From positions 65,320 through 129,319 of the forward strand of contig CAZAYY010000012.1 of NCBI GenBank assembly GCA_964489525.1: DNA of 64,000 nucleotides, read 5' to 3'. The position numbers and the translations under genes were made by a program. This document shows positions 37,207 to 52,736 of this stretch, in pieces. How positions within the stretch are numbered: position 1 is the stretch's first letter; every line of letters begins with the position of its first letter. This DNA comes from an uncultured Anaerolineales bacterium. GTDB taxonomy: Bacteria > Chloroflexota > Anaerolineae > Anaerolineales > JABWBV01. The notes below the pieces were generated by a model. It worked only from the letters and a program-made list of their open reading frames with translations, ran no database searches and was not told where the DNA came from.

Positions 37207-38451
37207 TTAAGGCGGGCAGGAACCCTCTCCAGGGCAAGCCAGCAGCCATTGACTTTCAAAATCGCTCTCGGCTGTCCAGCCTGTGATGGCCAGGCTGGGG
37301 ACATTCACCTCCCAAAAAACCAGGCCATCCGTACACACAGGGCCTTTGAGCAGTTCCACCACGGTACCAGGGCCTAGAGTAGCGCGCACATCCGTACCCA
37401 CCCCCGCCCCATTGCGCAAACGGTTGCTGGTGGGGGGGTTGGGGTTAACATAAGCCCGTCCGCCCTGCTGCAGCAGGCTCAGGCAAGCGGGGGTCAGTTC
37501 TGGTGAGCCAGTTACGCGCAGGGACATGACCAACGCATCCAGGGTTTCCAGGCTGGGGTTAAAACTGGCTGCGGGCTGGTTTTCGAGCCGGATTTTGATG
37601 GCTTCCAGGTATCTTTCGTAGGCAGCAGGGAAATTGGTGGAACTGTAATCAGGGAAAGGCTCTCCACCGGGGGGGATGGCGGTGTCGGCACTGCGGGCAG
37701 GGAGAATTGCTGAATGAATCGGCAGGATAACAGCAACATAATACGCCCCATCGGCTGTAAGTCCCTGGTATGTATAAAAAAGCGAATGGTTGTTAAGTTG
37801 GCCGGCATCCTGGCCGAATTGGGTCAGATAGCGAATTCCACTGCCATTTTGAAAATTGAGAAAAACCAGGTTGCTGTGAAATACCTGGGCGGCGTTAAAT
37901 ACGGGCAGAAAAGGCAGGGGGCTGCTGGCTGCAGCGCCATCCAACAAACCTCTTAATTGGTTCTCCTGATTGGCCGCACCGGGGTTATATCGGCCTATGG
38001 CTGCCAGCGGATACACAAAAACCACCGGGCTGTGCAGGGTATCTTGCAAAGGGTATCCTTCCAGGGCATACTGCAGGTGGGCGGGCATCACTTCCCAGGG
38101 AGGGCTGCTGCCCCCAGGGGCTACTGCGGGAACGAATAACGCCTCTACCCCCACAGCGAGGCTGGCTGGTAAAACCAGCTGGATTTCATCCGCAAAAAAT
38201 GAAAGGGATTCCGATGTGGGCAGCGGGGAAAGGGTGGCTGTTGGTTCAACACCCGGGTTGGTGGGGGTGGGCAGCACAGGTGAAGGGGGCGGCGTGGGGC
38301 TGACGGGGGCCACCAGAGTAGCAGCCGCTGCCAGGGTAGCCGTAGGCGAGCCAACTGGCTGTTGAACCAGGCTGCGCGCCAGGTTGCAGCCCAGGCTCAT
38401 CAGGATGAGAAACAAAATCCACAGAAAAGGTTTTCTTCGAGTTAATCGCAT
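37207..38451 (-). CDS. Secreted lipoprotein with Pro/Thr-rich linker and C-terminal SH3b-like domain
   Basis: Start at MRLTRRK (38451). Lipobox LGC. The C-terminal ~70 aa (RLRNGAGVGTDVRATLGPGTVVELL...GLVFWEV...GWTAES) resemble a bacterial SH3 domain. Last gene of the cytochrome cluster. Confidence 0.55.
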   Translation of the reverse strand: MRLTRRKPFLWILFLILMSLGCNLARSLVQQPVGSPTATLAAAATLVAPVSPTPPPSPVLPTPTNPGVEPTATLSPLPTSESLSFFADEIQLVLPASLAVGVEALFVPAVAPGGSSPPWEVMPAHLQYALEGYPLQDTLHSPVVFVYPLAAIGRYNPGAANQENQLRGLLDGAAASSPLPFLPVFNAAQVFHSNLVFLNFQNGSGIRYLTQFGQDAGQLNNHSLFYTYQGLTADGAYYVAVILPIHSAILPARSADTAIPPGGEPFPDYSSTNFPAAYERYLEAIKIRLENQPAASFNPSLETLDALVMSLRVTGSPELTPACLSLLQQGGRAYVNPNPPTSNRLRNGAGVGTDVRATLGPGTVVELLKGPVCTDGLVFWEVNVPSLAITGWTAESDFESQWLLACPGEGSCPP

Positions 38452-38566
38452 GCCGATTATTTTATCAAAAAAGTTCAGTACCACCCAAAAAGGCGGGGTG
38501 TTTGCGAGGAGGGCAGCTCGCAAACACCCCATAAAAAACAGGCAGAGAAATCAGCCCGGCTGGTGG

Positions 38567-40675
38567 TCAGGGTGCGGTTGTGGGCAGGAGAATCGTCCAG
38601 CTATCGGTTGTGTGACAGTTAGAACATTGTCCACGTGCATGACCGAGCGGCCGGTCTTTGGCATGGCAAGATTTACAATCGTTATATCCATCGTGATTAA
38701 AATCAACATCAGCCCAATCGGTAAAGTTGTGACACCCGGAACACTGCCCGGGCCAATGGCCCGTTGGCGCTGGATGGCAGTAAATGCAGTTATCTGTTAA
38801 CGAGTGTTTGTAATAGGCGGGTGTCCAGGTAATCGTATTATGACAAAGCGAACACTGAAGGGTGTAATGTTCAGGGGATGTGGCATGGCAGGACAGACAA
38901 TTGGTGCTGACCAGTGAATGGTCAAATACCCACTCTCGCCAATCCTGGGTGTTGTGGCATTTGATACAAATGGTTTGAGAATAATGCATCAGCGGAACCA
39001 CATGGCAGCTTGTGCAAGGGTAGGCCATGTTGGTGTGGCTGTAGTTGGAGTTCGTCCAAGTGGTCATCGCATGGCACGAGCTGCATTCGCCGGGGTAGTG
39101 ATTGGTTGGCTGCTCGCGGAGATGGCAGTTGGAACAAGAATTCAAGGGGTTGTGCTGATAAAGATTTTTCTTCCAATTGTTCAGGTTGTGGCAGTCGGTA
39201 CACAAGCCTGGGTAGTGTTCTTCAGGCGTGGTGTGGCACTGCAGGCAGTTGGTGGACTTGTGATAAAACGGTTCCTCCCAGCTTGTGGTACTGTGGCAAA
39301 GGTCGCAGTTGGGGTTGTAATGGTCTGCGATCGTTTCATGGCAGGTTATGCAGCGTTGGCTTTTGACTTCATGGAAATCTTTGTTGGTTTTCCAGGTGTT
39401 TGTCAGGTGACAATTGGTGCAGCTGCCCAGGTAGTCGTGGTTTGTATTGGGTTCGGTGTGACAGCGCACACAGGATGTGCGGGTATACAATTGGTGGGCA
39501 AACTGGTAAACATTCCAATCGGTTTCGCTTGTATGACAATCCACGCAGGCGCCCTTGGTATAGTGGTTGGCGGGTGTGTCGGGGGTATGACAGGTTTCAC
39601 AGGTATATTCCCCAACATGGACATATTCAATGACCGTCCAGTCTTCCATATCCTGGTGGCAGTTCTGGCAAAAGCCCGGGTTGTGTTCGGGCGGTTCGGC
39701 ATCGGCGTGGCAGCTTTCACAGCGCTCGCCTTCGGTATGTTCAAAAATGGTGAGAGACCAATCTTCGGTGTCTTCGTGGCAGCGTTTACACTCCCCTGGA
39801 TAGTGGGCAGAATCCCCTTGGGGCAAGGTGAAAATTTCTTCTGTGTAACCCACGGAATAAACCGCTTCGGTGAGCATGGTAATCGCATGGCAGGATTGGC
39901 ATTCAAAGACGCCCACGTGGTCAAAAGCAGTTGGTGTCCAGTCCAGGGTGTTATGGCAGTTTTCACAGGCACCAGCAAAGTGGTTGGTATAAATAGAAGC
40001 ACTGGCAAGCAAATCAATGGTGTGGCATTGGGCACAAATCCGGGTGGTGCCTGCATACAGCCCGTTGACATGGCAGTCCTCGCAATTGCCTGAATGACCG
40101 CCTTCCATTGAAAAATTGCTGTGGTCCACATCTGAATCGAGATAGGAAACCGCGACCGGGTTAACGCTCACCACAGAAGGCAGAAGCTGCACCTTGGGCG
40201 TCTCGGCTTTAGGCTCCGGGGTGTTAAGCATGGCGGAAACAAAGGCAAAGAGCGGCGCCGCTGCAGGCTCATTTTCTTTTAGATCGAGTGATTTTACAAC
40301 CACAATGGTTTTGCGAGCCAGGCTTTCAAACTCTGGCTGGAAGCCAGAAACGGATTGGGCTGGAATGGCGTTTTGCTGAACCACCAATACATCCAGTGCA
40401 TCCGCCAAAAACCCCACCGCAAGAGACACCTCCTCAGGGTTTTGCGCACCCGCCAGGTCCACCAGGCGCCGTTCTGCAAGCTGGCAGGCATAAGCGGTCT
40501 TTTCTTCTGGACCCTGGGTCAACTGCATCCGCCAGCTTTCTGCTAGGTGTTGGGATTGAAACCAGGGTTGTTCAAGACAGCTAAAAGGCTCTACCTCGGC
40601 CAGGTAAAAAAGCCCGAGGCCCGCCATGACCAATAAACAGGTTAGCGATAATAATAGGATGACGAGCTTTTTCAT
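38567..40675 (-). CDS. Membrane-anchored multihaem c-type cytochrome, 25 CxxCH motifs
   Basis: N-terminal signal anchor, then a ~190-aa haem-free domain. That is followed by 25 CxxCH motifs, mostly as repeated two-haem modules CxxCH-x(6-8)-H(Y/W)-x(2-4)-CxxCH-x3-W. Confidence 0.9.
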   Translation of the reverse strand: MKKLVILLLSLTCLLVMAGLGLFYLAEVEPFSCLEQPWFQSQHLAESWRMQLTQGPEEKTAYACQLAERRLVDLAGAQNPEEVSLAVGFLADALDVLVVQQNAIPAQSVSGFQPEFESLARKTIVVVKSLDLKENEPAAAPLFAFVSAMLNTPEPKAETPKVQLLPSVVSVNPVAVSYLDSDVDHSNFSMEGGHSGNCEDCHVNGLYAGTTRICAQCHTIDLLASASIYTNHFAGACENCHNTLDWTPTAFDHVGVFECQSCHAITMLTEAVYSVGYTEEIFTLPQGDSAHYPGECKRCHEDTEDWSLTIFEHTEGERCESCHADAEPPEHNPGFCQNCHQDMEDWTVIEYVHVGEYTCETCHTPDTPANHYTKGACVDCHTSETDWNVYQFAHQLYTRTSCVRCHTEPNTNHDYLGSCTNCHLTNTWKTNKDFHEVKSQRCITCHETIADHYNPNCDLCHSTTSWEEPFYHKSTNCLQCHTTPEEHYPGLCTDCHNLNNWKKNLYQHNPLNSCSNCHLREQPTNHYPGECSSCHAMTTWTNSNYSHTNMAYPCTSCHVVPLMHYSQTICIKCHNTQDWREWVFDHSLVSTNCLSCHATSPEHYTLQCSLCHNTITWTPAYYKHSLTDNCIYCHPAPTGHWPGQCSGCHNFTDWADVDFNHDGYNDCKSCHAKDRPLGHARGQCSNCHTTDSWTILLPTTAP

Positions 40676-40715
40676 AAGGATACCCTCATTCTGGGCCGTT
40701 TATTTGAAACAGCCG

Positions 40716-41732
40716 TTAGCGGCCCGATTGCACGGCTGTCTTTAACGCTGCTGCCTCCCCCGCTGCACCTGTGGGATGGCAGGAAGCGCAGTCACTCAAA
40801 TCACCATACTCACCTACGGCAAAGTGTTCTGCAATGGTTTCAACGGGCTGGTGATCGTGGCACCCGTAACAGGTAATTTCGGTGTAGTACTGCTGATGGC
40901 AGGTTTCACAGGCCACCACATCATCACTGCCATGACGAATGTCAAATGTGTGCAGCAGCAGATAGGCTGGCTTCCAGGCCGTTGTTGTGTGGCAGCGGTT
41001 GCAGGCAGCGCCAAACATGACCTTGTCTTTTTCGGCAATGTGGCAATCGGAACAAACCTGGCTGGTGCCCTGGAACACCTGGTTCTGGTGACAGCTGGCA
41101 CACTCCGCTCCGGCATGGGCCCCATCCAGGACATAGGTATCATGGGCAAATTCTGCCATGTTGGCTGTGCCATCATGACAGGCCAGGCAATTCACGCCAT
41201 AGAAATCCATGTGGGCAGAAGTAAAGTCATGATCCATCTCGACATGGCAGGTGACACAATCGGTAGAACCTTCGGCGAAATTCCCCTGCGTATGGCAGTC
41301 TTCACAGGTCATCAGCGAGTTATCCACGCGCAGGTTATGTTTTTCAAGCGAAAAACCTCCCAACTCCTGGTGATTGATGTTGACAAACGGCACATAGCTG
41401 ATGTTGGCATCGGTACCCTGGTGTTCAGTATGGCACGTCTGGCATTTGTAAGTACCAGGCAGTTTGCTGTGCAATCCATCCTGTTCCATTCGCTCTCGGG
41501 CAATTTCCAGGTGGCAGTTCTGGCAGCGATCATCACTGATACAGTGAATGGGAACATGGCAGTGCCCACATTCGTGTTTGAAGGCTTCGTGGTTTGGATA
41601 CCCCCCCAACATCGCTCCTGTCGCCTGGGCTGTGGACAAATTTCCCACCATCCGGTACTTCACGCTTTCAAAGGTGAGAAAACCGGCGGAGAAAACCACC
41701 ATCAGGGCAATAATTTTTATAAATCCTTTCAC
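40716..41732 (-). CDS. Membrane-anchored multihaem c-type cytochrome, 12 CxxCH motifs
   Basis: N-terminal TM helix and 12 CxxCH motifs. The C-terminal 4-haem block is paralogous to the C-terminus of the 6-haem protein. Confidence 0.9.
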   Translation of the reverse strand: MKGFIKIIALMVVFSAGFLTFESVKYRMVGNLSTAQATGAMLGGYPNHEAFKHECGHCHVPIHCISDDRCQNCHLEIARERMEQDGLHSKLPGTYKCQTCHTEHQGTDANISYVPFVNINHQELGGFSLEKHNLRVDNSLMTCEDCHTQGNFAEGSTDCVTCHVEMDHDFTSAHMDFYGVNCLACHDGTANMAEFAHDTYVLDGAHAGAECASCHQNQVFQGTSQVCSDCHIAEKDKVMFGAACNRCHTTTAWKPAYLLLHTFDIRHGSDDVVACETCHQQYYTEITCYGCHDHQPVETIAEHFAVGEYGDLSDCASCHPTGAAGEAAALKTAVQSGR

Positions 41733-41787
41733 AATAACACCTCCAATCCTTCGAAATGCTGGAAGGATTTGAACGGTAAATCAAGAA

Positions 41788-42609
41788 TCATCGCGTTCCT
41801 TTCTGCGCGGGCGGGGCCACCAGTTCCCAATCCCCGGGTTCTCCTGTCAGATGGCAGCTTGTGCAGGCCTTGATGTCGTAGATGTTGGCCTTCAAATGCA
41901 CCGCTAACATGGCATCGGGTTGGTGGTCGTGGCATCCAAAACAAGTGTGCGTATCATACGAATCAATGTGGCAAGAAACACACTGCTGCGTTGTATCTGA
42001 ACCGTGATCCAGGTGAAAAGTGTGGCGGGTGAGTAAGGCTGGTTTCCAGGCTTGGAGCGTGTGGCAGCGCACACAATCCAACCCAAAACGGTCTTTGTGA
42101 ACCTCGGGCTGCTCATGGCAAGCCGAGCAGCGGTGGGGGTCATCCACCACAACATTTAAGAACTCTTCTTCAAGGGCCATTTCAACCAGGGCATACGCTT
42201 CCACTTGACGCTCGCCAGCCAGGGCTTCGACCAGATTCCAGTTCACATTTTGAATGAAAGTAACCAACTGTTCAATTTGTAGGTCACTCAAAATGCCGCC
42301 CTTGTTGGTGTGCCAGGCAGCCATAACCGAGCCATGCGCAGAACGGGCAATAATCTGAAAAAGAGCGTCCGGGTCGGCATCCGCAAGGTAAGGGGAGTTA
42401 AGCGGCGGCATATCCCCAATCCCCTCGCCATACAGCCCGTGGCAAGACACGCAGTTATCCATATACACCACAGCCGCCTCAGCAATATGCTGTTTGCGCA
42501 CTTCTTCCATGGCAATGGCAATCCGTTGGCCTTCTTGCAAGGCATACAAAGGCAGCAAAATGAGGAATCCAAGCAGTCCGAGTGCTGTAATCCAGGAATA
42601 TCGGTTCAT
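41788..42609 (-). CDS. Membrane-anchored c-type cytochrome: class-I monohaem domain fused to a 5-haem module (6 CxxCH)
   Basis: TM helix. CVSCHGLYGEG...M class-I-like domain. Then CSACH, CVRCH, CVSCH, CFGCH and CTSCH. Confidence 0.9.
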   Translation of the reverse strand: MNRYSWITALGLLGFLILLPLYALQEGQRIAIAMEEVRKQHIAEAAVVYMDNCVSCHGLYGEGIGDMPPLNSPYLADADPDALFQIIARSAHGSVMAAWHTNKGGILSDLQIEQLVTFIQNVNWNLVEALAGERQVEAYALVEMALEEEFLNVVVDDPHRCSACHEQPEVHKDRFGLDCVRCHTLQAWKPALLTRHTFHLDHGSDTTQQCVSCHIDSYDTHTCFGCHDHQPDAMLAVHLKANIYDIKACTSCHLTGEPGDWELVAPPAQKGTR

Positions 42610-42618
42610 GGCACCCTC

Positions 42619-43185
42619 CTACCCATACACCAACTGGTCGGGCGAGAAGTGGTCGCGCCGCCGTAAGTAAGAAGTATCGACATACACTTTGCCGCTGTCA
42701 ATTTTGACGGTGTATAAATCTAAGGCCCGGTGAAGGGTAGTTTTTTCTGAATTTCCGTAAAAATCAAAAGCCGAAGCGTGGCAAGGGCAAAGGAATTTGC
42801 CTTCATCGGAAGAATAATTAACTGTGCAGCCCAGGTGGGGGCAGCGGCGGTAGACGGCCATAAACCCGCCATCCGCCGCCCGCACCAAGTAAAAACCTGC
42901 TACTGGAAAATCGGTCACCGAACCAGGGCTAAAGCTATCCACAGTCCCAACGTCCACCTGCCGGGCAACCCGGCTTTCTCCGGTTTGCGGTTTGAGATAC
43001 ATCAGGCCAATGCCGATGAGTTCAACAGCAGCCGCAACACCCGCCAGTTTCAAAAATTCTTTGCGGTTAATGCGCAGCTTCTTCCGAGGTTCTGAAATCG
43101 GGTGGGATACCATAGCTTCCAAACCCTGGATTTCTTCAGGGTCCATATCGGTTGTTGGGGTAGGTTTACTGTTAAGCGTTTGCAT
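42619..43185 (-). CDS. Rieske [2Fe-2S] subunit of a cytochrome bc-type complex
   Basis: AGGAGG RBS. Tat-like NRKEFLKLAG plus a TM helix. Cluster boxes CPHLGC and CPCHAS. Confidence 0.9.
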   Translation of the reverse strand: MQTLNSKPTPTTDMDPEEIQGLEAMVSHPISEPRKKLRINRKEFLKLAGVAAAVELIGIGLMYLKPQTGESRVARQVDVGTVDSFSPGSVTDFPVAGFYLVRAADGGFMAVYRRCPHLGCTVNYSSDEGKFLCPCHASAFDFYGNSEKTTLHRALDLYTVKIDSGKVYVDTSYLRRRDHFSPDQLVYG

Positions 43186-43202
43186 TTTTCACCTCCTGTC
43201 CA

Positions 43203-44558
43203 TTAAGAAAATGGCAGGATAAGAGCCATATTCGCGCCTCGGAAGAAGACGCCAATGATGGTCAGCGCCACCAGGCTGGAAAACTCGAACATAAATAAAC
43301 CCAACAATGCTTCCGAGCGGTTTGCCCGTAAAAGCCTGAATAAACCATAAACCAGGGCCAGCAGCAAAACCGCGACCGCAAATGGAATCACTCCATTCGC
43401 AACCAGGGGATTCAGGGTTGGGAATAGTTCCGGAATTTCGAGCCAGTATTCATCGGCAATCACCAGCAAGGGAATCAGGTTGAAGGCCAGCAGCGCGCCC
43501 AGGGCAAAAGTCCACCTGCCGGTTTTTGACCGGAAATAGATACCAGTGCTTTGATCCTGTCGATCGTAATAAGGAAGCAGTACTGCCATCAAGGTCACCA
43601 AAATCACCAGTGCCATGGCTGCTCGAGCATCCATATGCAGCAGCAGTTCTTGAAGTCCCATGAAATACCAGGCAGCTTTGGCCGGGTTTGGAGAAGAAAG
43701 GGGGTCGGCAACAGCCAACAACGGGGCTGGAAACTGCGTTCCGATTAAGAAAACCCCAAAAGCCACCAGAACCATAATCCCCAGCTCTTTCTGAACCAGG
43801 TTTGGAATGGTGGTTACCTGTTCGGTGATTTCGCCTGGCTTTGAAGGGGGGTGGCTGATTCCACCCGATTTGCGAATTTTCCAAAAGTGGTAGCTCATCG
43901 TTGCCACCAACAAAACTGGCAGCACAGCCACATGAATCGCATAAAAATTCCGCAAGGCCGCCTGGCCAAGATCCGGCCCGCCCAACAAAAAATGAGACAG
44001 AGAATCTCCAGCGAATGGAATGTACTGAACCAGGCTGGCCGCAACAGTTACCGCCCAATACGAAAGCTGGTCCCAGGGCAGCAGGTAGCCAGTGAAATTG
44101 AAGCCAAGAACGATGAACAGCAAAACCATCCCAATCACCCAGTTGAAAGCCCGTTCTTTAACATGGCTGCCCGTCAAAAAGACCCGCAGCAAATGGAGCA
44201 CCACCACAAACACCAGGATGTTTGCAGACCAATGGTGAATGGCGCGAATCAGCGAGCCAAACATCACCTGTGATTCAATCATCTGGATGCTCTGGTAAGC
44301 CCGATCCACACTGGCATCATAGCGGAACATGAGCAAAACCCCGGTAGAAATCAGGACAAGTGTCAGAAAGGTGGCAATCCCACCCAGACCCCAGGTATAG
44401 GTAAAACGCAAAGCCGGGACTGGGACGCGGGTGGGGTGCAGATGTAAAATGACGTTATTTAGAACTTCTCGCAAGCGGCTGCGTTCTTCTTCTGCTGAAA
44501 TGGCAGCCTGGTCTCGCCCAGGAGTACTGGTTTTATTCAAAGGAAGATTGGTATCCAT
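43203..44558 (-). CDS. Cytochrome b (fused b6-like N-domain plus subunit-IV-like C-domain plus extra helices)
   Basis: Helix B H-x13-H (IHHWSANILVFVVVLH) and helix D H-x14-H (IHVAVLPVLLVATMSYH). The Qo-loop region PAKAAWYFMGLQELL sits at the position of the PEWY motif. Confidence 0.9.
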   Translation of the reverse strand: MDTNLPLNKTSTPGRDQAAISAEEERSRLREVLNNVILHLHPTRVPVPALRFTYTWGLGGIATFLTLVLISTGVLLMFRYDASVDRAYQSIQMIESQVMFGSLIRAIHHWSANILVFVVVLHLLRVFLTGSHVKERAFNWVIGMVLLFIVLGFNFTGYLLPWDQLSYWAVTVAASLVQYIPFAGDSLSHFLLGGPDLGQAALRNFYAIHVAVLPVLLVATMSYHFWKIRKSGGISHPPSKPGEITEQVTTIPNLVQKELGIMVLVAFGVFLIGTQFPAPLLAVADPLSSPNPAKAAWYFMGLQELLLHMDARAAMALVILVTLMAVLLPYYDRQDQSTGIYFRSKTGRWTFALGALLAFNLIPLLVIADEYWLEIPELFPTLNPLVANGVIPFAVAVLLLALVYGLFRLLRANRSEALLGLFMFEFSSLVALTIIGVFFRGANMALILPFS

Positions 44559-44570
44559 ATAAGCCCTCGA

Positions 44571-46118
44571 TTATTGGGTAACCAACAAAGGAATAAAAAC
44601 TTTAAAGTTCACTGGTACTTCTGTACCCAAATATAAAAAAGCACTGCCAACCAGGTCAAAATTGACCCGATAAACTGGAGCGCCAACAACCAGGTCGGCA
44701 TGGTTGTCTAGGTCCAGGTCGGTGCCGCCAGAAAACGTAAAACCAAAGGATGCGTCAGCCTTGTTGCCCAGCCCGCGCCAGAGCACACTGACACCCAACC
44801 CACCGGGATAGCCTGCGAAAGCATAGATGGCGCCCTGGTCTGGTTTGTCGCCATCAAACATGGATGCACCCACAAAAACGTCGGGAAAACCATCCTGGTT
44901 GACATCGCCAGCGCTTCCAACAGAACAGCCAAACTGGGAGCCGCCCTGCGGGAAGATGTAACTCCAGACCGGGATGGGGAAAAGTCCATCGCCACTGCCT
45001 AGATAAAAATAAGCGGCGCCCTGGTTCACCAACTGGCTGCTGTGATAGGGCTCACCAATGATTAAGTCCGCATAACCATCCTGGTTGACATCCCCTGCCC
45101 CCGCTAAAGCATAGCCAAACTGAGCTCTATCCTCCTGCCCATAAACAACCTGGGCGGGTGTTTCTGCCAGGCCATTTTCGCCACCCAGGTAAACATAAAC
45201 TGCACCCACCTGAACCGTTTGCGTCACATAATAGGGTGCGGCGATGGCGACATCGGTATAACCATCCTTGTTCAGGTCCCCCACCCCGGCCACCACCATC
45301 CCAAAGTCAGCGCCAGCTTGCCCGCCATACACAACCCAATCCGGCTCAAATGGCAGACCGCTGGCAGAACCATAGTAACCAAAAACTGCGCCTGCTTTAA
45401 GCCCTGAAAGCGGGGACGTAAAATTGGGAGCGCCGATCATCACATCGCCAAAACCATCCTTGTTGACATCACCGGCACTGGCCACAGCATATCCAAATTG
45501 TGCACTTTTGGTGTTGGATTCCACCCGCCAATCCGGGGTGAGTGCAGGCGTTCCAGGTTGGCCGTAGAACAGGTATGCAGCGCCTTCCTCAGCTTCCGGG
45601 TTTGTGGTGCTGGGAGCCCCGATCAGAATATCATCCCGGCCATCCCCGTTAACATCCTGCACAATCGCCAGGCTGCTGCCATAGCGCGAGCCCTGCTGCT
45701 CGCCAGCCGTTTGCCAGGAAGCCGCGTTTCCCGGACCGGAAGGGCCGCTCAGGTATAGGAAAGCCCGGCCTTCGCGGTACACCTGGTCGGTCATTTTCGC
45801 GGCACCCACCAGTAAATCGGCCCGGCCATCACCGTTCACATCGCCTGTGATGCTGACTGCGCTGCCAAATTCATCGCCATTGCTCTCGCCGCTTTGCGAC
45901 CAAACGGGGGTCAGGGAAAAGCCCGCCAGGGTTTGGTTTTGAGACAGGGAAAGGCTTGCGCTTTCAGGAGCAGCGCCCGCCAGGGAAGGGTGAGAAAACC
46001 CGAACGCCAAAAGCACAACCAGGCTCAGCCAGACCCAGGCGGTTGGGCGGGAATGGGTATTTTGGGAAGGGGTTAAGGGGGTTGGGTTCATCAGGTTGTG
46101 CTTTTGGCTGTCTTGCAA
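44571..46118 (-). CDS. Secreted FG-GAP (integrin-alpha-like) beta-propeller repeat protein
   Basis: Signal peptide. About 7 repeats of FG..V...GDVNxDGxxDxxxGAP. Only 12 nt upstream of cytochrome b. C-terminal tail NFKVFIPLLVTQ. Confidence 0.85.
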   Translation of the reverse strand: MQDSQKHNLMNPTPLTPSQNTHSRPTAWVWLSLVVLLAFGFSHPSLAGAAPESASLSLSQNQTLAGFSLTPVWSQSGESNGDEFGSAVSITGDVNGDGRADLLVGAAKMTDQVYREGRAFLYLSGPSGPGNAASWQTAGEQQGSRYGSSLAIVQDVNGDGRDDILIGAPSTTNPEAEEGAAYLFYGQPGTPALTPDWRVESNTKSAQFGYAVASAGDVNKDGFGDVMIGAPNFTSPLSGLKAGAVFGYYGSASGLPFEPDWVVYGGQAGADFGMVVAGVGDLNKDGYTDVAIAAPYYVTQTVQVGAVYVYLGGENGLAETPAQVVYGQEDRAQFGYALAGAGDVNQDGYADLIIGEPYHSSQLVNQGAAYFYLGSGDGLFPIPVWSYIFPQGGSQFGCSVGSAGDVNQDGFPDVFVGASMFDGDKPDQGAIYAFAGYPGGLGVSVLWRGLGNKADASFGFTFSGGTDLDLDNHADLVVGAPVYRVNFDLVGSAFLYLGTEVPVNFKVFIPLLVTQ

Positions 46119-46149
46119 AAAATCTGTTTCAGGATCCTACAAGTCGAGA

Positions 46150-46179
46150 GGGCAGGGGCCAGCAAACCAGCCCCTGCCC
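46150..46179 (-). other. Intercistronic GC-rich stem-loop between the BNR and FG-GAP genes
   Basis: Perfect 10-bp stem (gggcaggggc 46150-46159 / gcccctgccc 46170-46179). No T-tract follows on the minus strand. Confidence 0.5.
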
Positions 46180-46194
46180 ATTATGGCTGGGTTG

Positions 46195-49100
46195 TTACCG
46201 GGTGAAGGGCAGGTATACCCTGTAAAGCGTGTCTGCCACCAGCAAAGGCTGCCAGGCATCCACAGACCAGTTGCCCTTAGCATCTTTCGCCCGGAATTTG
46301 ATGATGTGCAAGCCTGGGCTGAGGCCCCACTGGTTGGGGTTCATGGCAAAACCAGGCTGGTTGCTCATAAGCCCGTCATGGGAGGAAGTCCACTCGTATT
46401 CCACAATGCCGCCACTCAGCTGGTCACAATCCTTGGCAAAGCCCTGGAAATAGACCAGGTCGGTCGTGGCAAGTTCTATGGAAGTTGGAGCAACCACAAT
46501 CCGGGCGGTGGGTACAATCTCGATGGCTTCGTTGTAATATACCCGGCGGTACCACATGTCGCTGTTGGTCACCACTTCTTCGGCGTCTTCATTCCATTGG
46601 TTCCAAACCGCATAGAAGAATGTGCCGCCCGGGTTGGCCACCAGCGCCGCCTCTCCAGAAAGATCGTCCTGGTTGTTTTCAAGCCAGTCAAAGGATTCGC
46701 GATAAACGCCGTTGGCATCTGGAATGTCTGCAAGCACAATGTCATCATAGTTGTCGCCCCAGTCGGAAGCCCGGCTGTAATACAGGTTCAACGGGGTGGC
46801 TTCGCCAAGGGTAACCGTGGTATTGTCGCCGGTTTCATACACCACGAAGAACTTGCTGGGGTCTCGCTCATCATCGGTATAGCGATACTCCGTCTTCAAC
46901 GTATCCGAGAAAATTGCCGGAGCGGTGGGGCTGTAGCGGGGATCCAGGATGGTGATCTTGGTGCCAATAAGCTGTGAAACGTTGCGGGCGGGTTCAAAAG
47001 CGCCTACCCCATAGCAGGTTTCTACCGACAGTTCACTTTCGCCATCAGGGATATCCAGGTAGTTTTCAACGTGGCACGGGCCGATATCGTCTCCCAGCCC
47101 AAGTGGGGTGGTTGTCCAGGTCTGCCCGCCGTCGAAGGAGCGGCGAATGTACAGGTTGTATTTGTCATTTCCAACCGAGTTAGCCATCCAGTTGGGCGAC
47201 CAGGCGTAAAGCACCATGACAAAATCACCATCAATGAAACCACGGTGGCCTTTGGCAATGTCGTAGGGGTTTTCCCAGGTCTGGTCATCCAGGTTTTCTG
47301 CTGTCTGGTCCCAAACGGTCACCTTCGGGAAGGGGGATACGCCGCCATCCCACGGGAAGGCTTGAATGCATTGAGCCGGGTCGGTGCCATCTCCACCCGC
47401 TGGCAGGTTGGTACAGCGCTCAATGCTGGTTCCAGACAGGTTGGTGGGTGTCGAAAGGCAGATGCCACCGGGGTAGTTCGGGTTGATTGCTGCATGGACG
47501 GTTTCGGTGGTGTAGCGGGTATCGGTGATCGGCACATAGTCCCAGATATCACAGGCCATGTTCTCAAAAGCAAAGGGGTTATCGAGCATGGGGTCAAATT
47601 CATCTGGAATGACCAGCCGGCGCATGTAGATATCGGCCGGGCCGCCCTGGTTAATGATGCCCTGCTTGTAGAGCAAGATTGCCGAGGTTTTTTCCACTGA
47701 GTTCAACGTGGCTTTTCCAGATTGGACAATCAGGCTGAAACGCCGGGCAATTTCGGTTTCGTAAAATGCGTTGCCCCAGTCATCCAACTGAAGCTCAAAG
47801 AAATCTCCTGTTTCTGGGTCGGAAGAAGGTTGGTTGAGGATATGGCCTCGGCTGACCAGGTCGGGTTGGAACATGTCGAAGCTGTGGTACCAGATATTCT
47901 TACCGATATCAATGGGTTCCACTTCCAACTCGCTCGATCCTTCACCTAATGCTTTGGTTTCTTCGTAGGCAATCAGCACCCAGGCGCTGGTTCGGGTGTC
48001 GTAGATGGGTTCGGTAATCTCGACGGTATAGGTGATGCCTGAGGTATCGGTGAGAGTAACGGTCTGGGTGATTTCGCCAATGATGGTGTCATAATCATAG
48101 GTGGTGTACCCTTGCAAGCCAATCCGGGGTCGCGAAGCGCCCACCCGCCCTACCAGGGTGCGGCCATCTTCCGTCACGCAAACATTCTTGGGCTGGCCGC
48201 CGGGGTTAAGCCACTCTACTGTGGATGCACAGTACTCAAGAATTCCATCTCCGTTGAAGTCGTGGTGGCAATAGGGGTCTTCGGTCAAAGAGGTGGCATC
48301 ACAAAAGTCGTTGTCGGTCAGGCGAACCGGAACTTCCATGAGCACACCCACTTTGGGCAGGGTTCCTTCCGGATCATAAACATATTCAATCGGGTCGGGG
48401 ATGTTTTCCAGGTTCTCGGTGGTCGGGTCGTCCACCAGGGCAAAATCATCCCAACCAATATAACTGTACCAGACATCGGTTTTGGCGTTGACAATCGCAC
48501 CGCTCCAACCCTCGCCTGGGCCAAGGCCCTGGCCGGGCCGCAGGCCTTCGGGGTCTTCCTGCCAGGTGACAATAAAGCCAGCGCCTTCCACGCCTTTAAC
48601 TTCAATCCGGTGTGCATCCCGGCGTCCAGAGGTCAGGCGTTCGGCTTTGCGCCAAATCATGTCATAATAGGAGGTGCCATCTTCCCGGGTGATTTGCTCC
48701 AAGGTGCCTCGGGCTACCCAAACACAGCCATAAGGGATTTCGCCTATTTCAGGAAAGCCCTGTAGGGTGTAATCTACTGATTTTTGGGTACCCATCACGC
48801 CAAACAGATCTTTTTCCGGATAGATGGTATAGGCGGGCAGGCCGCCATCACAGTAGCGGCTGATCCAGGCCACCATCGCGTACCGCCCGGTAATGGCGAA
48901 TTCACGCGAAACGCCCAGTTCCAGGTAGAAAACATCACCGGGGTAGGGTATGCCATCCACGGTGAATGAGCTCAGATGGGCTGAATCTGACAGGTTGTAG
49001 TTCTTCCAGGTGGCGCCATCGTCCAGCGAGAGAGCGGCAAAGGCATCCCGTGCACCAAAACCAAGGCCGCTGCGCACTTCTTCCTCGTGTTCAATACCAT

Positions 49101-49386
49101 CAATGTATGCGCTCAATAAAGGCCGGGCATAGTCGCGGGTTTCAATCACCGTTTCTGTGTCGGAAAGCAAGACGGTGTACTCAATGGTGGTCAGGCTGCC
49201 ATCGGCTTTTTGGGCTGGGACATAAAAGTTCATCATACCCACAGCGGCTTCCTCGGTTTCACCGTCGGGTGTTCTGGAGACGTTTCTGCGAAACATCACG
49301 CCATCATCACCCAGGGCTGAACCGGTGACAAGGCCGAGGGCCAGGACAACCATGAGCACTGCAAATAATACGGTTTTCGGTTTCAT
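46195..49386 (-). CDS. Large secreted protein with BNR/Asp-box motifs and a C-terminal Ig/PKD-like domain
   Basis: Signal peptide. Two Asp-boxes (SLDDGATW, SFDGGQTW). C-terminal beta-sandwich-like region. Tail YRVYLPFTR. No further family recognised. Confidence 0.7.
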   Translation of the reverse strand: MKPKTVLFAVLMVVLALGLVTGSALGDDGVMFRRNVSRTPDGETEEAAVGMMNFYVPAQKADGSLTTIEYTVLLSDTETVIETRDYARPLLSAYIDGIEHEEEVRSGLGFGARDAFAALSLDDGATWKNYNLSDSAHLSSFTVDGIPYPGDVFYLELGVSREFAITGRYAMVAWISRYCDGGLPAYTIYPEKDLFGVMGTQKSVDYTLQGFPEIGEIPYGCVWVARGTLEQITREDGTSYYDMIWRKAERLTSGRRDAHRIEVKGVEGAGFIVTWQEDPEGLRPGQGLGPGEGWSGAIVNAKTDVWYSYIGWDDFALVDDPTTENLENIPDPIEYVYDPEGTLPKVGVLMEVPVRLTDNDFCDATSLTEDPYCHHDFNGDGILEYCASTVEWLNPGGQPKNVCVTEDGRTLVGRVGASRPRIGLQGYTTYDYDTIIGEITQTVTLTDTSGITYTVEITEPIYDTRTSAWVLIAYEETKALGEGSSELEVEPIDIGKNIWYHSFDMFQPDLVSRGHILNQPSSDPETGDFFELQLDDWGNAFYETEIARRFSLIVQSGKATLNSVEKTSAILLYKQGIINQGGPADIYMRRLVIPDEFDPMLDNPFAFENMACDIWDYVPITDTRYTTETVHAAINPNYPGGICLSTPTNLSGTSIERCTNLPAGGDGTDPAQCIQAFPWDGGVSPFPKVTVWDQTAENLDDQTWENPYDIAKGHRGFIDGDFVMVLYAWSPNWMANSVGNDKYNLYIRRSFDGGQTWTTTPLGLGDDIGPCHVENYLDIPDGESELSVETCYGVGAFEPARNVSQLIGTKITILDPRYSPTAPAIFSDTLKTEYRYTDDERDPSKFFVVYETGDNTTVTLGEATPLNLYYSRASDWGDNYDDIVLADIPDANGVYRESFDWLENNQDDLSGEAALVANPGGTFFYAVWNQWNEDAEEVVTNSDMWYRRVYYNEAIEIVPTARIVVAPTSIELATTDLVYFQGFAKDCDQLSGGIVEYEWTSSHDGLMSNQPGFAMNPNQWGLSPGLHIIKFRAKDAKGNWSVDAWQPLLVADTLYRVYLPFTR

Positions 49387-49430
49387 TTTTTACTCCTCTT
49401 CTAGAAGGTTCAAAGGACTTAAGGGGGCTG

Positions 49431-49640
49431 TCAAAGGGTCTTAACATACTTCATAAAGATTTCCTCCATTTGTTCAGGGGTGGCATTGACCTGTTTGCAC
49501 AAATAATTGAACATCAGTTCAACGGTTGAAAAGTGGATCACTTCCTGGGTGAGGACATTTTGCAGGGTGGCTCGCCAATCCCCACTCTGGCTATCACACC
49601 AGATGCGCATTAAGTAGGATTTGTAAAGTTGATCTTGCAT
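49431..49640 (-). CDS. Small conserved hypothetical protein (69 aa), paralog of 52906-53130
   Basis: Start at MQDQLYKSY (49640) with an AAGGAG RBS. Shares the motif Y-x-S-Y-x-x-R-x-W...W-R-A-x-L-Q-x-x-x-T-x-E-x-x-x-F-S with the second copy. Confidence 0.6.
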   Translation of the reverse strand: MQDQLYKSYLMRIWCDSQSGDWRATLQNVLTQEVIHFSTVELMFNYLCKQVNATPEQMEEIFMKYVKTL

Positions 49641-49679: not shown

Positions 49680-49708
49680 TTGACAAACTTCACAGTTAAA
49701 TGTATTAT
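49680..49708 (+). promoter_or_regulatory. Sigma70-type promoter for the SARP-STAND regulator
   Basis: Consensus TTGACA (49680-49685), a 17-nt spacer, then TATTAT (49703-49708). About 98 nt upstream of the ATG. Confidence 0.55.
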
Positions 49709-49805: not shown

Positions 49806-52736
49806 ATGGAGCGGATCGTGATCAACCTGTTGGGTTCGTTTAACGTCCTGGCAGGCGGCCAAAAAATCAACGACGATTTTCGAACCAGCAAAGAGCGTGC
49901 CTTACTGGCTTATCTGGTTGTTGAGCACCAGCAGGTTCACTTACGAGATGCTTTGGCCGAAATGTTCTGGCCAGGCAAGCCGCCCGGAAGCGCCCGTACC
50001 AATTTACGACAGGCTCTGACGGGTATCCGCCAGGTTTTGACGCAGGGGTTGAACAACCTGGACAACCATCTGATTGTGAACAATGAGAGTGTGCAGCTGC
50101 ACCTGGGGGGGCAGATCCAGGTAGATGCACTCACGTTTGCCGGGCAAATTCATCATGCAGGTCATCATACCCACCTGGAGTTAAGCCAATGCCCAAAATG
50201 CCTGGCCGAGTTAGAAGAGGCCGTGGCTGCATACCAGGGAAATTTTCTTGAATCCTTTTTCCTGCCAGACAGCATTACATTTCAAGAATGGATTACCTAT
50301 CAACGCGAGTATTACAACCGCCAGCTTGGCTCTGCCCTCTGGATGTTAATAAGTGCCCACAAAAAGCGTGTGGATTTTGAGCGGGTCGAGCAGTATGCAG
50401 CCCAAATGAACCGCTTTTTCCCCCTGGAAGAATTTGGCTACCGCGAACTGATGGAAGTGTATGCGGCCACAGGAAGAAGGAACGCCGCCCTGGAAAAATT
50501 TTCTGAATGCGCAAACCTGATGCAGCGTGAATTGGGCATTGAACCTTCTGGGGAAACCCAGGCTCTGTACGAAAAAATCAAAAGAAATCCGGACACAAGA
50601 CCCCTGGCGCAAACCAGAGAGCCACCCGCTGCCCGGATTCCCACGGGTGAGTCACCTGTAAAAACGAACCTACAAGCACCCCTGACCAACTTTTTTGGCC
50701 GTCAAAAGGAATTGAACCGGCTTGCCACCTACCTGGAAAGCCCAAACTGCCGGTTGATCACCATTTTAGGGATTTCAGGCGTTGGCAAAACCCGGCTGGC
50801 CCTGGAAGCAGCCCGGAAAAACGGCCATTTGTTTCCTGATGGGGTTTGGATTGTGTTTTCAAACGAACTCCGAAAGTCGCGCTTCCTGGCGGATACCTTG
50901 CTGCAAACCATGGGGGTTTATATTGCAAACCCGAACGATGTCAAAGCTCAGCTGGCCAGGGTGCTGCAAAACCAGCAGGCACTTTTGGTTTTGGATGGGT
51001 TTGAATTGCTTGAAGACCAGATCCAGCTTGTTTTGGATCTGTTGAGCCAGGCACCCAGGTTAAAAATTTTACTCACCTCTCGGGTACACCTGAACACAAA
51101 AGCCGATTACCCGATCATTCTGGGCAGCCTGGATTACCCGCCCCAAACTACTCAATCCAAAACACTCCAAATTAACGATTATCCTGCCCTACAGCTTCTC
51201 CACGACCGGGCATATCCGTTTTTGCTGCCAGAGCAAATTCCCCCTGCTCATATTCAAGAAATGGCAAAAATTTGCCAGGAGGTGGAAGGGCTGCCTTTAG
51301 CCATTGAACTGATTGCCGCCAACCTGGACGAATTCAGCTTTGGCGAAATCCTGGCCATGTTAGCGAACAACCAACTGCAGATCGAAACCCAACAGCTCGA
51401 TTTTCCAGACAAACACCGCAGTCTTGTGGTCGCGCTCAACAGCCTTTGGGAAAGTCTGTGCTCAGAATGCAAACAAAACGCCCCAAAATTGAACGTTTTC
51501 AAAAGCGGGTTCACATCCCAGGCCGCCCAGGCCTTAGGCGTGTCCAACCACACCCTGCAGCACCTGAGCAGTAAGTTCATTTTGCAAAAAGACATTCACC
51601 AGAGGTACCAGTTTCAACCCATGGTTCAGCGGTTAATCGTATCCATGTTCCCGGTCGCAGCCGAACAAGCCGAAAGGCATGCCCGGCATTACCTGGAATA
51701 CCTTCAAAAACACGAAATGGAACTGCTTTTTGGCTACCCAAACAGCCTTACTTACCTGGAAATCAAACAAGATATCGCCAACATTCGCCAGGCCATAGAT
51801 TGGGCCATCCTGAACACGAGGGCCGACCTTTTATCCCCCTCTCTGAACAGTATTTACGCCTACTATGATACCAGCAACCGTTTTCACGAAGGGGAAGGCC
51901 GGTTTGAAAGAATCAGCAAAGCCTTTGAAAGGCTGCCCCTCACTCCTGAAAACCAGCGCAGCCTGGGCATTGCCATGGGCTACCAGGCCTGGTTCAGCGG
52001 GCGCGGTGGTGCGCTGGAAAATGCCCTGGTAATGCTGGCAAGCAGCCTGGCCCTGCTTGAGGAGTTTGGAACCGAGAGCGACAAAACCTTCATCTATGTT
52101 GCCCTCAGCCAGCTGGAGCTGCGATCAGGGCAGTTTGCCTGGGCAAAAGAACATGCTGATCAGGCGAAAGCCCTGGCCATTCACTACTACCAACCACACT
52201 GGCGCTGGCTCAGTGAACTGACCCTGGCGCAAACTGCCCACCTGACCCACGAGAAAGAATCACCGGTCACAATCTACCTGGAGTGCCTTTCCGCATTTAA
52301 GAACTTAGGCTATGGGTTGGGATATATCCGTACCTTGCTGCTGCTTGCCCGGTACAACCTGGCCACAAACCAGGCGGAAATGGCAAAATCGCACCTGATG
52401 CAAGCCTGGGAATACATTAAAAGCCCGCAGGATACCTGGCTTTCAGCCATCCTGGAGTTGGAGTTGGGAAATGTCGAACTGCAGCAGGGGTTCATTGCCC
52501 AAAGCCAGCTTACCTTAGAGAAAAGCTACGCCTATTTTCAAGATGTGGGAGACAAATATCATATCAGCCTGGCTGCCATCAGCCTGGGCAATCTTTGGAC
52601 AAAACAGGGACAACTCGAAAAAGCCGAGATGTACTACCAGGAAGCCCTGGTTGCTGGCAACCAACAACAGCTGGAACCCATTACCCGAGAAGTTGAGCAC
52701 AGGCTGCTGAAATTGAGAGAATCCCCCACCCGATAA
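49806..52736 (+). CDS. SARP/BTAD-family transcriptional regulator fused to NB-ARC (STAND) ATPase and TPR repeats (AfsR-like)
   Basis: N-terminal winged-helix (SKERALLAYLVVE...) plus BTAD (...YRELMEVYAATGRRNAALEKFSECANLMQRELGIEPSGETQALYEKI). P-loop GISGVGKT, Walker B LLVLDGFE, and a TPR-like C-terminal half. Confidence 0.85.
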   Translation: MERIVINLLGSFNVLAGGQKINDDFRTSKERALLAYLVVEHQQVHLRDALAEMFWPGKPPGSARTNLRQALTGIRQVLTQGLNNLDNHLIVNNESVQLHLGGQIQVDALTFAGQIHHAGHHTHLELSQCPKCLAELEEAVAAYQGNFLESFFLPDSITFQEWITYQREYYNRQLGSALWMLISAHKKRVDFERVEQYAAQMNRFFPLEEFGYRELMEVYAATGRRNAALEKFSECANLMQRELGIEPSGETQALYEKIKRNPDTRPLAQTREPPAARIPTGESPVKTNLQAPLTNFFGRQKELNRLATYLESPNCRLITILGISGVGKTRLALEAARKNGHLFPDGVWIVFSNELRKSRFLADTLLQTMGVYIANPNDVKAQLARVLQNQQALLVLDGFELLEDQIQLVLDLLSQAPRLKILLTSRVHLNTKADYPIILGSLDYPPQTTQSKTLQINDYPALQLLHDRAYPFLLPEQIPPAHIQEMAKICQEVEGLPLAIELIAANLDEFSFGEILAMLANNQLQIETQQLDFPDKHRSLVVALNSLWESLCSECKQNAPKLNVFKSGFTSQAAQALGVSNHTLQHLSSKFILQKDIHQRYQFQPMVQRLIVSMFPVAAEQAERHARHYLEYLQKHEMELLFGYPNSLTYLEIKQDIANIRQAIDWAILNTRADLLSPSLNSIYAYYDTSNRFHEGEGRFERISKAFERLPLTPENQRSLGIAMGYQAWFSGRGGALENALVMLASSLALLEEFGTESDKTFIYVALSQLELRSGQFAWAKEHADQAKALAIHYYQPHWRWLSELTLAQTAHLTHEKESPVTIYLECLSAFKNLGYGLGYIRTLLLLARYNLATNQAEMAKSHLMQAWEYIKSPQDTWLSAILELELGNVELQQGFIAQSQLTLEKSYAYFQDVGDKYHISLAAISLGNLWTKQGQLEKAEMYYQEALVAGNQQQLEPITREVEHRLLKLRESPTR

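Follow-up and report, generated by a model that had tools for sequence, protein, structure and literature searches.

Organisation of the gene cluster

The subject of this study is a cluster of genes for a Rieske/cytochrome b complex and three multihaem c-type cytochromes, found in 64,000 nucleotides of DNA from an uncultured Anaerolineales bacterium (GenBank assembly GCA_964489525.1, contig CAZAYY010000012.1, positions 65,320 to 129,319; the whole of this stretch is called the window here). Open reading frame (ORF) calls across the window place eight co-oriented genes on the minus strand, from position 49640 to 38567. In order, they encode a small protein, a BNR protein, an FG-GAP protein, cytochrome b, a Rieske protein and cytochromes with six, 12 and 25 haems (Table 1). 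The gaps between them are, in the same order, 44, 76, 12, 17, 9, 55 and 40 nt. An original prediction, made from the sequence of the window, had proposed a nine-gene unit for the export of electrons. Its order, strand, lengths and gaps hold for eight genes, but the ninth, an annotated 'SH3' ORF 34 nt beyond the 25-haem gene, follows a terminator-like hairpin and does not belong to the unit. The best-supported reading of the remaining eight is a paralogue of the Anaerolineae menaquinol:cytochrome c oxidoreductase that is both regulated and specialised and would feed a chain of haems.

The 43 c-type haems of the original prediction were confirmed as 6, 12 and 25 CXXCH motifs in the three cytochromes. 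There is no CXXCH motif in any other ORF of at least 100 amino acids in the whole 64-kb window, and the total of 43 is therefore far beyond chance. The domain identities also held in hidden Markov model searches, which recovered the FG-GAP, Cytochrome_B, Rieske and multihaem domains with Pfam and the BNR protein with NCBIfam. The small protein at the head of the cluster has no significant Pfam match, and the most likely start of its ORF gives a product of 69 amino acids. At the other end, a hairpin that begins 36 nt past the stop codon of the 25-haem gene is the strongest terminator-like site between positions 36000 and 53500. As terminator-like sites in total are not above chance, this call depends on the strength and position of the hairpin, which probably closes the operon after the 25-haem gene.

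Table 1. Coordinates of the gene cluster and of other features in the window
Feature	Coordinates	Strand	Remarks
Small conserved protein, 69 aa	49431-49640	-	First gene of unit; start most likely ATG 49640
'Choice-of-anchor O' BNR protein, 1063 aa	46195-49386	-	NCBIfam NF040591, 705.5 bits against a cut-off of 125
FG-GAP (integrin-alpha-like) propeller, 515 aa	44571-46118	-	Pfam PF01839, E 1.9e-55, 184 bits, 7 repeats; true start may be ATG 46091
Cytochrome b, 451 aa	43203-44558	-	Pfam Cytochrome_B 2e-45; Cytochrome_B_C just below cut-off
Rieske [2Fe-2S] protein, 188 aa	42619-43185	-	Pfam Rieske 2.5e-9
Hexahaem cytochrome c	41788-42609	-	6 CXXCH; Pfam Cytochrome_CBB3 and Cytochrom_C on residues 42-122
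Dodecahaem cytochrome c	40716-41732	-	12 CXXCH, 16 further His; Pfam c7/c3 domains; N-terminal hydrophobic helix
25-haem cytochrome c	38567-40675	-	25 CXXCH; N-terminal transmembrane helix, helical bundle, dihaem repeats
Intrinsic-terminator-like hairpin	38494-38531	-	15-bp stem, 9 G-C pairs, T-rich tail
BTAD/SARP-like regulator with NB-ARC and TPR	49806-52736	+	Pfam BTAD 5e-18, NB-ARC 4e-13, TPR
Sigma-70-like promoter match	49680-49708		11/12
Lipoprotein ('SH3' ORF)	37207-38451	-	Start Met28 likely; outside module
ECF sigma factor and DUF5667 anti-sigma-like protein	53244-55084	-	Beyond the BTAD regulator
Strong terminator hairpin	53225-53186		Ends the sigma/anti-sigma-like pair
Unrelated 497-aa protein	55392-56885		No Pfam match; carries the C-terminal tail
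C-terminal tail, BNR protein	46195-46230		...YRVYLPFTR
C-terminal tail, FG-GAP protein	44571-44606		...FKVFIPLLVTQ
C-terminal tail, 497-aa protein	56850-56885		...FYDIYLPLVAR

The cytochrome b and Rieske subunits

Cytochrome b combines a b6-like N-terminal half, a subunit-IV-like part and two extra helices, with about nine hydrophobic segments in all. Alignment to b6 structures (2zt9, 1vf5) shows that the four haem-ligand His residues are kept with b6-type spacing. These form the bL/bH pairs on helices B and D (IHHW/VLH and AIH/SYH) and are present in all 80 related loci, that is, the best 80 cytochrome b loci from a scan of one genome per species with the window protein. The haem-ci Cys35 of b6 corresponds to Trp56, and the protein is without any Cys. 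At the quinol-oxidation (Qo) site the motif reads NPAKAAWYF (residues ~291-299), which agrees with none of the canonical forms PEWY, PDWY, PVWY and PPWF and keeps the W-Y alone. A non-PEWY variant occurs in all 80 relatives, those with an ordinary cytochrome partner included; it is KAPWYF in Gemmatimonadota, and the Pro and the Glu, the latter a residue discussed in catalysis, are absent throughout the Anaerolineae/Gemmatimonadota clade. Because the KAAWY-type motif is shared with ordinary-partner relatives, it is considered to be a trait of the lineage and not a defect of the window copy.

In the Rieske protein the motifs CPHLGC and CPCHAS supply the CxH/CxxH ligands of the cluster and both disulfide Cys residues. 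Box I is CPHLGC in most loci of the multihaem type, whereas it is CTHLGC in loci where the partner is a trihaem cytochrome. Phe replaces Tyr after box II. A Tyr at this place is typical of high-potential Rieske centres, and its loss, as judged from mutagenesis work on bc1 complexes, fits a centre of lower potential and of the menaquinol type. The N-terminus has a twin-arginine translocation (Tat)-like signal or anchor, NRKEFLK (residues 41-47). Of the features by which the bc1/b6f superfamily is recognised, two His pairs in cytochrome b, the Rieske ligands with their disulfide, and a co-encoded, putatively membrane-anchored cytochrome c were found here; the canonical Qo motif was not. The redox core holds the residues expected of a working Rieske/cytochrome b complex.

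The three multihaem cytochromes

The gene for the hexahaem protein starts 9 nt past the Rieske gene. The protein has an N-terminal hydrophobic helix, one class I haem domain of the His/Met type and then a pentahaem module. The helix and class I domain align with the first domain of the trihaem cytochromes encoded in ordinary Anaerolineae bc operons, and the second and third class I domains of those proteins are replaced by the pentahaem module. The hexahaem protein is thus the equivalent of cytochrome c1 or f, a normal cytochrome c subunit that has been remodelled, and this makes quinol oxidation feeding a long haem chain the natural reading of the cluster. The pentahaem module also recurs in the 12-haem protein, at the C-terminus and with 46% identity, and the sharing of this module between the two proteins suggests that they have a matched interface.

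The 25-haem cytochrome consists of a DUF5667-like helical bundle of about 130 amino acids followed by about 12 dihaem repeats of 38-40 amino acids. In the repeats there are 20 amino acids per haem, and 23 of the 24 segments between motifs contain exactly one extra His. The AlphaFold2 model is confident for residues 1-155 alone, which form a transmembrane helix and a five-helix bundle (~39-151). The dihaem unit resembles the small tetrahaem cytochrome (STC), and the repeats have no PDB sequence matches other than STC-type proteins of Shewanella (6hr0, 1m1p). In homologues the number of haems is 22-38, and for some there is a precomputed match to PF18915 (DUF5667). Many homologues (L021, L024, L005, L029 and L081 among the related loci) end in low-complexity tails rich in Pro, Thr and Glu, for example ...TEEPTEEPTEEPTG, and such tails could be linkers that span the wall. 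The window copy ends in just ...LLPTTAP.

Pfam domains of the c3/c7 multihaem type are found in all three cytochromes. His residues outside the haem motifs number 26, 16 and 11 in the 25-, 12- and 6-haem proteins, and neither CXXCK nor any other variant haem motif is present in the three. This stoichiometry, with the lack of variant motifs, fits bis-His haems for electron transfer better than a catalytic site. A catalytic haem or terminal reductase within the cluster was therefore rejected, each haem having one distal His available to it. Each cytochrome has one N-terminal hydrophobic segment, as does each of the two propeller proteins. Membrane anchors had been claimed for the former and signal peptides for the latter; the segments themselves are there, but the sequence is compatible with either an uncleaved anchor or a cleaved signal peptide.

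Distribution of the cluster in Anaerolineae

Nearly all of the 80 cytochrome b loci come from metagenome-assembled genomes (MAGs) of Anaerolineae, and their cytochromes b are at most 60% identical to the window copy. The cytochrome b and Rieske genes are followed by a single cytochrome with three CXXCH motifs in 56 of them (two motifs where the ORF is truncated or split). The extended cluster is present in 14, from different Anaerolineae MAGs (L005, L008, L012, L016, L017, L019-L021 and L024-L029). The 6- and 12-haem counts recur in most of these 14, the latter in L005, L017, L020, L021, L024-L027 and L029, while the large cytochrome may have as few as 22 or as many as 38 haems, and some loci have a second large cytochrome with 24-26. 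When BNR homologues were traced to their contigs, three out of three sat in the same type of cluster. These are represented by four loci (L081-L084), of which L081 and L082 are near-identical copies of one cluster in two assemblies, so that there are three distinct clusters; the cytochromes of L081 have 6 and 27 haems. The expectation of the original prediction that the arrangement would recur in relatives is therefore borne out.

The small protein also has counterparts. In L020, L021 and L024-L028 homologues of 77 amino acids (36-51% identity) are encoded at the same place, with the regulator on one side and the BNR gene on the other, and L084 has a 79-amino acid ORF that corresponds by position alone. 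The MAG JBNKZT01 contains both the extended cluster (L005) and a second cytochrome b-Rieske operon (L009), which suggests that the multihaem cluster is an extra, specialised complex. Among cluster-bearing records that are named below class level, most are labelled Anaerolineaceae or Leptolinea. In a neighbour-joining tree the cytochromes b of the multihaem type are near to, but not cleanly apart from, one subclade of the trihaem type; the tree has no support values and no evolutionary conclusion is drawn from it.

A different arrangement was seen in most of the loci from MAGs of Gemmatimonadota (L042, L046, L052, L060, L063, L072 and L078), where a heptahaem cytochrome of 765-810 amino acids follows the cytochrome b and Rieske genes. 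This is another multihaem variant of the Rieske/cytochrome b theme. The 25-haem protein has more distant homologues too. Two of these, in a KSB1 MAG and on an unclassified metagenome scaffold, adjoin other cytochromes and Fer4/Pyr_redox genes. A link between this cytochrome family and Rieske/cytochrome b outside Chloroflexota was rejected, as neither of these two distant homologues has adjoining bc genes.

Secreted propellers with a shared C-terminal tail

The match of the BNR protein to NF040591 covers model positions 1-670 of 670; its Pfam BNR match is below threshold. The AlphaFold2 model (predicted local distance difference test score, pLDDT, 77.7; predicted template modelling score 0.80), searched with Foldseek, shows a sialidase-like beta-propeller of the BNR/Asp-box kind with large insertions, a C-terminal Fn3/Ig-like domain and then a short tail. 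The family has more than 1,250 homologues, in which eight Cys are invariant and the stretch WQEDPEGLRPGQGLGPGEGWSGA is nearly all invariant. As the Foldseek matches, to sialidase-type propellers and to Fn3 domains, are weak, no enzymatic function is assigned to the protein. The FG-GAP protein, which like the BNR protein has an N-terminal hydrophobic segment, has homologues in all of the related clusters.

Both genes accompany the multihaem cytochromes with great regularity. They occur in 14 of the 14 multihaem loci (13 complete and one truncated), while the remaining 66 loci are without them (Fisher p = 4e-14). The association holds for both gene orders seen, BNR-FGGAP-cytb and FGGAP-kinase-regulator-BNR-cytb. 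Independent variation of the propeller and bc genes, which would have spoken against the original prediction, is thus not what was observed. It is possible to see the propellers as ordinary glycan-binding or glycoside-hydrolase-like neighbours, with cytochrome b, Rieske and the cytochromes as the only functional unit. The best structural matches of the BNR model are sialidases and other glycoside-hydrolase propellers, and carbohydrate genes (GH97, alpha-amylase, GalT) abound elsewhere in the window. However, those matches are weak and were assigned on fold alone, and this explanation would not account for the strict association in the 14 loci and in the three traced BNR homologues despite the changes in gene order, nor for the mere 12 nt that separate the FG-GAP and cytochrome b genes. 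We consider it very improbable.

A second feature connects the two propellers. In every locus they and their homologues end in a tail of the form [FY]x[IV][FY]LPxxx[RK]-COOH, which no hydrophobic helix follows. A count over the window and the loci, 1,043 ORFs in total, gave 25 C-termini with this tail, as against 0.7 expected from its internal frequency. Its carriers are the BNR and FG-GAP families and one unrelated protein of 497 amino acids encoded elsewhere in the window. The tail is a candidate sorting or anchoring signal of Chloroflexota and was matched to no named system. It is the main reason for thinking that the propellers share a destination in the envelope, where they most likely serve as scaffold or docking parts of the envelope or surface.

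Regulator and neighbouring genes

A BTAD-family regulator lies divergently on the upstream side of the cluster and probably controls the operon; a sigma-70-like promoter match is found at 49680-49708. Regulators of the same family, fused to GGDEF, PAS or NB-ARC domains, occupy this position in L020, L021, L024-L028 and L081-L084. The type of regulator varies with the locus: some have such a BTAD fusion, others a PAS/GAF histidine kinase paired with a response regulator of the LuxR type. Sensory regulators next to the cluster imply that its expression is conditional. In some relatives an FKBP-type isomerase-like protein of about 170 amino acids adjoins the sensor kinase of the cluster (L021, 28-528; L020, 136-672; L027, 1-531). 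It ends in a Cys/Gly-rich tail, ...SCGSNSDGCGGGCG, and is not present in the window.

Beyond the BTAD regulator are genes for an extracytoplasmic function (ECF) sigma factor and a DUF5667 anti-sigma-like protein, the pair being ended by a strong terminator hairpin. This pair was rejected as a conserved regulator of the cluster, since, of the other clusters, L081/L082 alone are preceded by a similar pair (47% identity).

The annotated start of the 'SH3' ORF (38532) falls within the hairpin that follows the 25-haem gene. The true start is likely to be Met28 (38451), which leaves a gap of about 115 nt and is followed by a lipobox-like LMSLGC. Neither an SH3 domain nor any other Pfam match was found in the window lipoprotein, while full-length homologues carry a precomputed PF08239 (SH3_3) match. 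The family is widespread in Chloroflexota, with a core of about 290 amino acids for which there is no Pfam model and a subset that adds a C-terminal SH3_3 domain. The lipoprotein had been proposed as a scaffold part of the module. We reject this, given the upstream hairpin, the absence of homologues from the related clusters and the neighbourhoods of its homologues, which are unrelated to the cluster or to respiration.

The remainder of the window consists of ordinary housekeeping, transport and carbohydrate genes, and tRNA and Rfam scans of the 64 kb gave no matches. The guanine-plus-cytosine content of the cluster (0.52-0.55) matches that of the window outside it and gives no hint of recent transfer.

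Proposed function

We propose that the cluster encodes an electron-transfer module that spans the envelope. It might work in either direction, with outward flow favoured, and we give this reading a probability of roughly 0.55. The b6-like cytochrome b would take two electrons from menaquinol at its Qo site. The first would pass by way of the Rieske cluster to the hexahaem subunit, which is anchored in the membrane, and would enter it at its one class I haem. The second would be recycled through both b haems, as in a Q cycle, so that energy would be conserved at the step of exit. Past the class I haem, electrons might proceed to the pentahaem module, the 12-haem and then the 25-haem cytochrome, a path of 42 further haems on three proteins tethered at their N-termini. 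The 25-haem cytochrome would in turn reduce a partner in or beyond the wall, such as Fe(III) or Mn(IV) minerals, humics, an electrode or a partner cell. The two tagged propellers may be partners of the cytochromes in the envelope. Coupling of quinol oxidation to a haem chain had been put forward in the original prediction and stands as the natural reading of a conserved cluster. The sequence shows the gene content, the cofactor ligands, the homology of the hexahaem subunit, the bis-His stoichiometry, the operon-like layout and the conserved synteny; that the proteins form a complex, that the chain reaches past the membrane face or the envelope, that flow is outward, what the partner is and that the propellers act as a scaffold we infer.

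No porin or outer-membrane component is encoded in the cluster. This agrees with the view given in PMC7399161, citing Sutcliffe 2011, that Chloroflexi probably do not have an envelope of the Gram-negative type. With the outer membrane probably lacking, a porin would not be needed.

The haem chain could also remain in the wall zone, acting as a distribution network or capacitor for detoxification or for reductases of soluble substrates (selenite, tellurite, nitrite, sulfur compounds or humic analogues) and offering no conduit to solid acceptors. Apparent tethering of the cytochromes by N-terminal helices limits their reach unless a rod is formed. The nearest NCBIfam family to the window cytochrome b is named for a Geobacter selenite/tellurite reduction operon (PMC5877670), and the multihaem Rieske/cytochrome b complexes of Methanoperedens and anammox bacteria have been proposed to feed enzymes acting on soluble substrates (PMC4683180, PMC12954380). 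However, none of 18 loci had a reductase, or a haem motif of the catalytic type, within the operon or next to it. In addition, 43 or more haems far exceed what is needed to reach a neighbouring enzyme, and the strictly co-inherited, secreted propellers with their sorting-like tail point to a structure of the envelope or surface. We therefore regard confinement to the wall zone as rather unlikely.

Direction of flow is a separate matter, as nothing in the sequence fixes it and the list of parts would fit inward flow equally. In that case an extracellular donor (Fe(II), a reduced mineral, a cathode or a syntrophic partner) would supply electrons through the haem chain to the class I haem and Rieske centre. 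The bc complex, reversed by proton-motive force, would then reduce menaquinone, or electrons would branch to a terminal oxidase or a nitrate reductase with its genes elsewhere. Multihaem chains with bis-His ligation tend to be of low potential, while a Rieske centre and a His/Met haem are higher, and this order would favour inward flow. Reverse operation of a bc complex is established in acidophilic iron oxidisers. Ardenticatena maritima has both anodic and cathodic extracellular electron transfer (EET) (PMC5808234). On the other hand, there are no oxidase, nitrate reductase or carbon-fixation genes in the operon or the 64-kb window, and Pfam and NCBIfam scans found no Cyc2-like or other iron-oxidase marker. 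Cultured members of the Anaerolineaceae, the family label that with Leptolinea predominates among the named cluster-bearing records, are anaerobic fermenters. Inward flow is accordingly considered unlikely, and an outward module remains our preferred reading.

Several observations weigh against that preference. Given the order of potentials just described, outward flow would require either a fairly oxidising acceptor or uphill steps. The Qo motif is without the Pro-Glu of PEWY, and catalytic competence of the cytochrome b/Rieske pair is assumed from its residues. The Tat motif of the window Rieske protein has RK where every relative examined has RR (SRRxFLK). The haem region of the 25-haem model has a pLDDT of 40-60 and gives neither length nor shape, and the propeller matches of the BNR model are weak (E ~1e-4, TM-score below 0.35). 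Every named record that carries the cluster is a MAG, with no cultured organism among them. The one Chloroflexi isolate with demonstrated EET, A. maritima 110S, is reported to have at most seven haems per protein (PMC5808234), and for this reason its phenotype has no bearing on the cluster.

A more ambitious proposal is that the cluster is the core of an undescribed machine by which Anaerolineae, as monoderm filaments, respire outside the cell. It would be the first EET conduit to be driven directly by a Q-cycle Rieske/cytochrome b complex. Its wire, with at least 43 haems, would be kept in the wall or sheath by the two propellers, which a new C-terminal sorting tail would place there. We put this forward as a tentative possibility only, one that is less probable than not.

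Implications

In anoxic sediments, aquifers, anaerobic digesters and electrode biofilms, Anaerolineae rank with the most abundant bacteria. They have repeatedly been suspected of extracellular or interspecies electron transfer, for which no pathway has been assigned, and earlier work noted only their very large cytochromes. The cluster is a concrete and conserved candidate for the link between these cytochromes and the quinone pool. If flow is outward, an exit through Rieske/cytochrome b would conserve more energy per electron than quinol oxidases of the CymA, ImcH or Cbc type, and it would restrict the organism to relatively oxidising acceptors. Should the cluster prove to be a dedicated respiration machine, it would explain the suspected electroactivity of Anaerolineae, and their suspected capacity for direct interspecies electron transfer, in sediments, digesters and anode biofilms. 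The co-inherited propellers and their shared tail may also reveal how proteins are placed in the envelope of monoderm Chloroflexota.

Comparison with known systems

The ordinary cytochrome b-Rieske-trihaem operon of Anaerolineae is similar to the window cluster in many respects. Its cytochrome b is 45-60% identical and likewise fuses b6 and subunit IV, and the NPAKAAWYF Qo motif, the Trp in place of the haem-ci Cys, the Rieske type, the gene order and the class I domain are all common to both. The two differ in that the partner in the ordinary operon is one trihaem protein of three class I domains, whereas the window cluster has the hexahaem protein in its place and adds the 12- and 25-haem proteins, two propellers, the small protein and a dedicated regulator.

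By composition, the closest characterised analogue is the ext cluster of Geobacter sulfurreducens, GSU2930-2937 (extKLMNOPQS), which encodes a Rieske protein (ExtO), a split cytochrome b (ExtP/ExtQ) and cytochromes of 5, 12, 10 and 2-4 haems (PMC2825233, PMC5877670). The statement in the original prediction that multihaem partners elsewhere have far fewer haems is therefore not correct. The function of the ext cluster is itself unsettled. It is conserved across the genus and was proposed as a site of quinol oxidation for extracellular respiration (PMC2825233), and was later linked to selenite and tellurite reduction (PMC5877670). The window cluster may function in a similar way but is not a member of this group. 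The best NCBIfam matches of its cytochrome b are to ExtP (259.4 against a cut-off of 290) and ExtQ (51.3 against 150), both of which fall below. The Rieske, 6-haem and 12-haem proteins (E<=10) and the 25-haem protein (E<=0.01) matched none of the Ext-named NCBIfam models, whose coverage of the Ext set is possibly incomplete. Furthermore, the porin ExtI, the rhodanese ExtH and the selenocysteine cytochrome of Geobacter are missing in and beside the window operon. Orthology was rejected on the cut-offs and on these missing companions. Geobacter is also diderm, whereas the host of the window is a probable monoderm, and the propellers are unique to the Anaerolineae cluster.

Multihaem partners are likewise known from Methanoperedens (ANME-2d), in which a Rieske/cytochrome b cluster has two pentahaem cytochromes (PMC4683180), and from anammox bacteria (Kuste4569-4574, Kustd1480-1485), with hexa- and octahaem cytochromes (PMC12954380). 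As in the window cluster, a b6-like cytochrome b, a subunit-IV-like part and a Rieske protein are combined with a multihaem cytochrome that replaces cytochrome f or c1. Those systems have 6-16 haems and are tied to nitrate/nitrite chemistry or to NAD(P) reductase modules. The window cluster, by contrast, has 43 haems and the propellers in addition, while a catalytic or NAD(P) module and the haem ci/cN Cys are absent.

In Thermincola and Carboxydothermus, multihaem cytochromes of the membrane, wall and surface (OcwA) bridge a thick wall without a porin (PMC6703420; cited in PMC5808234). These monoderm EET chains are alike to the window cluster in concept; no sequence relationship to them was detected, though no search aimed at one was made. 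To our knowledge they are not built on a Rieske/cytochrome b quinol oxidase and have no propeller partners. The cluster does not resemble MtrCAB/Pcc conduits either, having no porin, an MtrC/MtrF domain score of 29.7 against 30 on the 12-haem protein, and scores far below cut-off for the decahaem models. Nor is it of the c7 nanowire kind (GSU1996-like), with a TIGR04257 score of 16.3 against a cut-off of 40.

Very large cytochromes in this part of the tree have been reported before. RBG-9 was reported with two PetAB complexes and with decahaem and 24-haem cytochromes (PMC3971608), Anaerolineales have cytochromes with a variable number of haems (PMC7399161), and 88 of the 124 proteins with at least 20 haems in the Chloroflexi supergroup are from 'Anaerolinea' (bioRxiv 10.1101/2021.08.23.457424). 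Very probably these belong to the same family as the 25-haem protein. Anaerolineae cytochromes with at least 20 haems, and a possible role for them in EET, are thus already known from these three sources. The cytochromes are treated there by themselves, and the passages searched contain no mention of a link to a Rieske/cytochrome b operon, of the 6- and 12-haem partners or of the propellers.

The view that the system is undescribed needs to be qualified by the Geobacter, Methanoperedens and anammox precedents for a multihaem Rieske/cytochrome b complex. It may hold for the cluster as a whole, since no description of it, or of a choice-of-anchor O protein in such a role, was found in the full-text literature searched, a body that excludes most subscription journals. 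What is new is the combination of a hexahaem equivalent of cytochrome c1 with 12-haem and 22-38-haem partners and two obligatory, tagged propellers.

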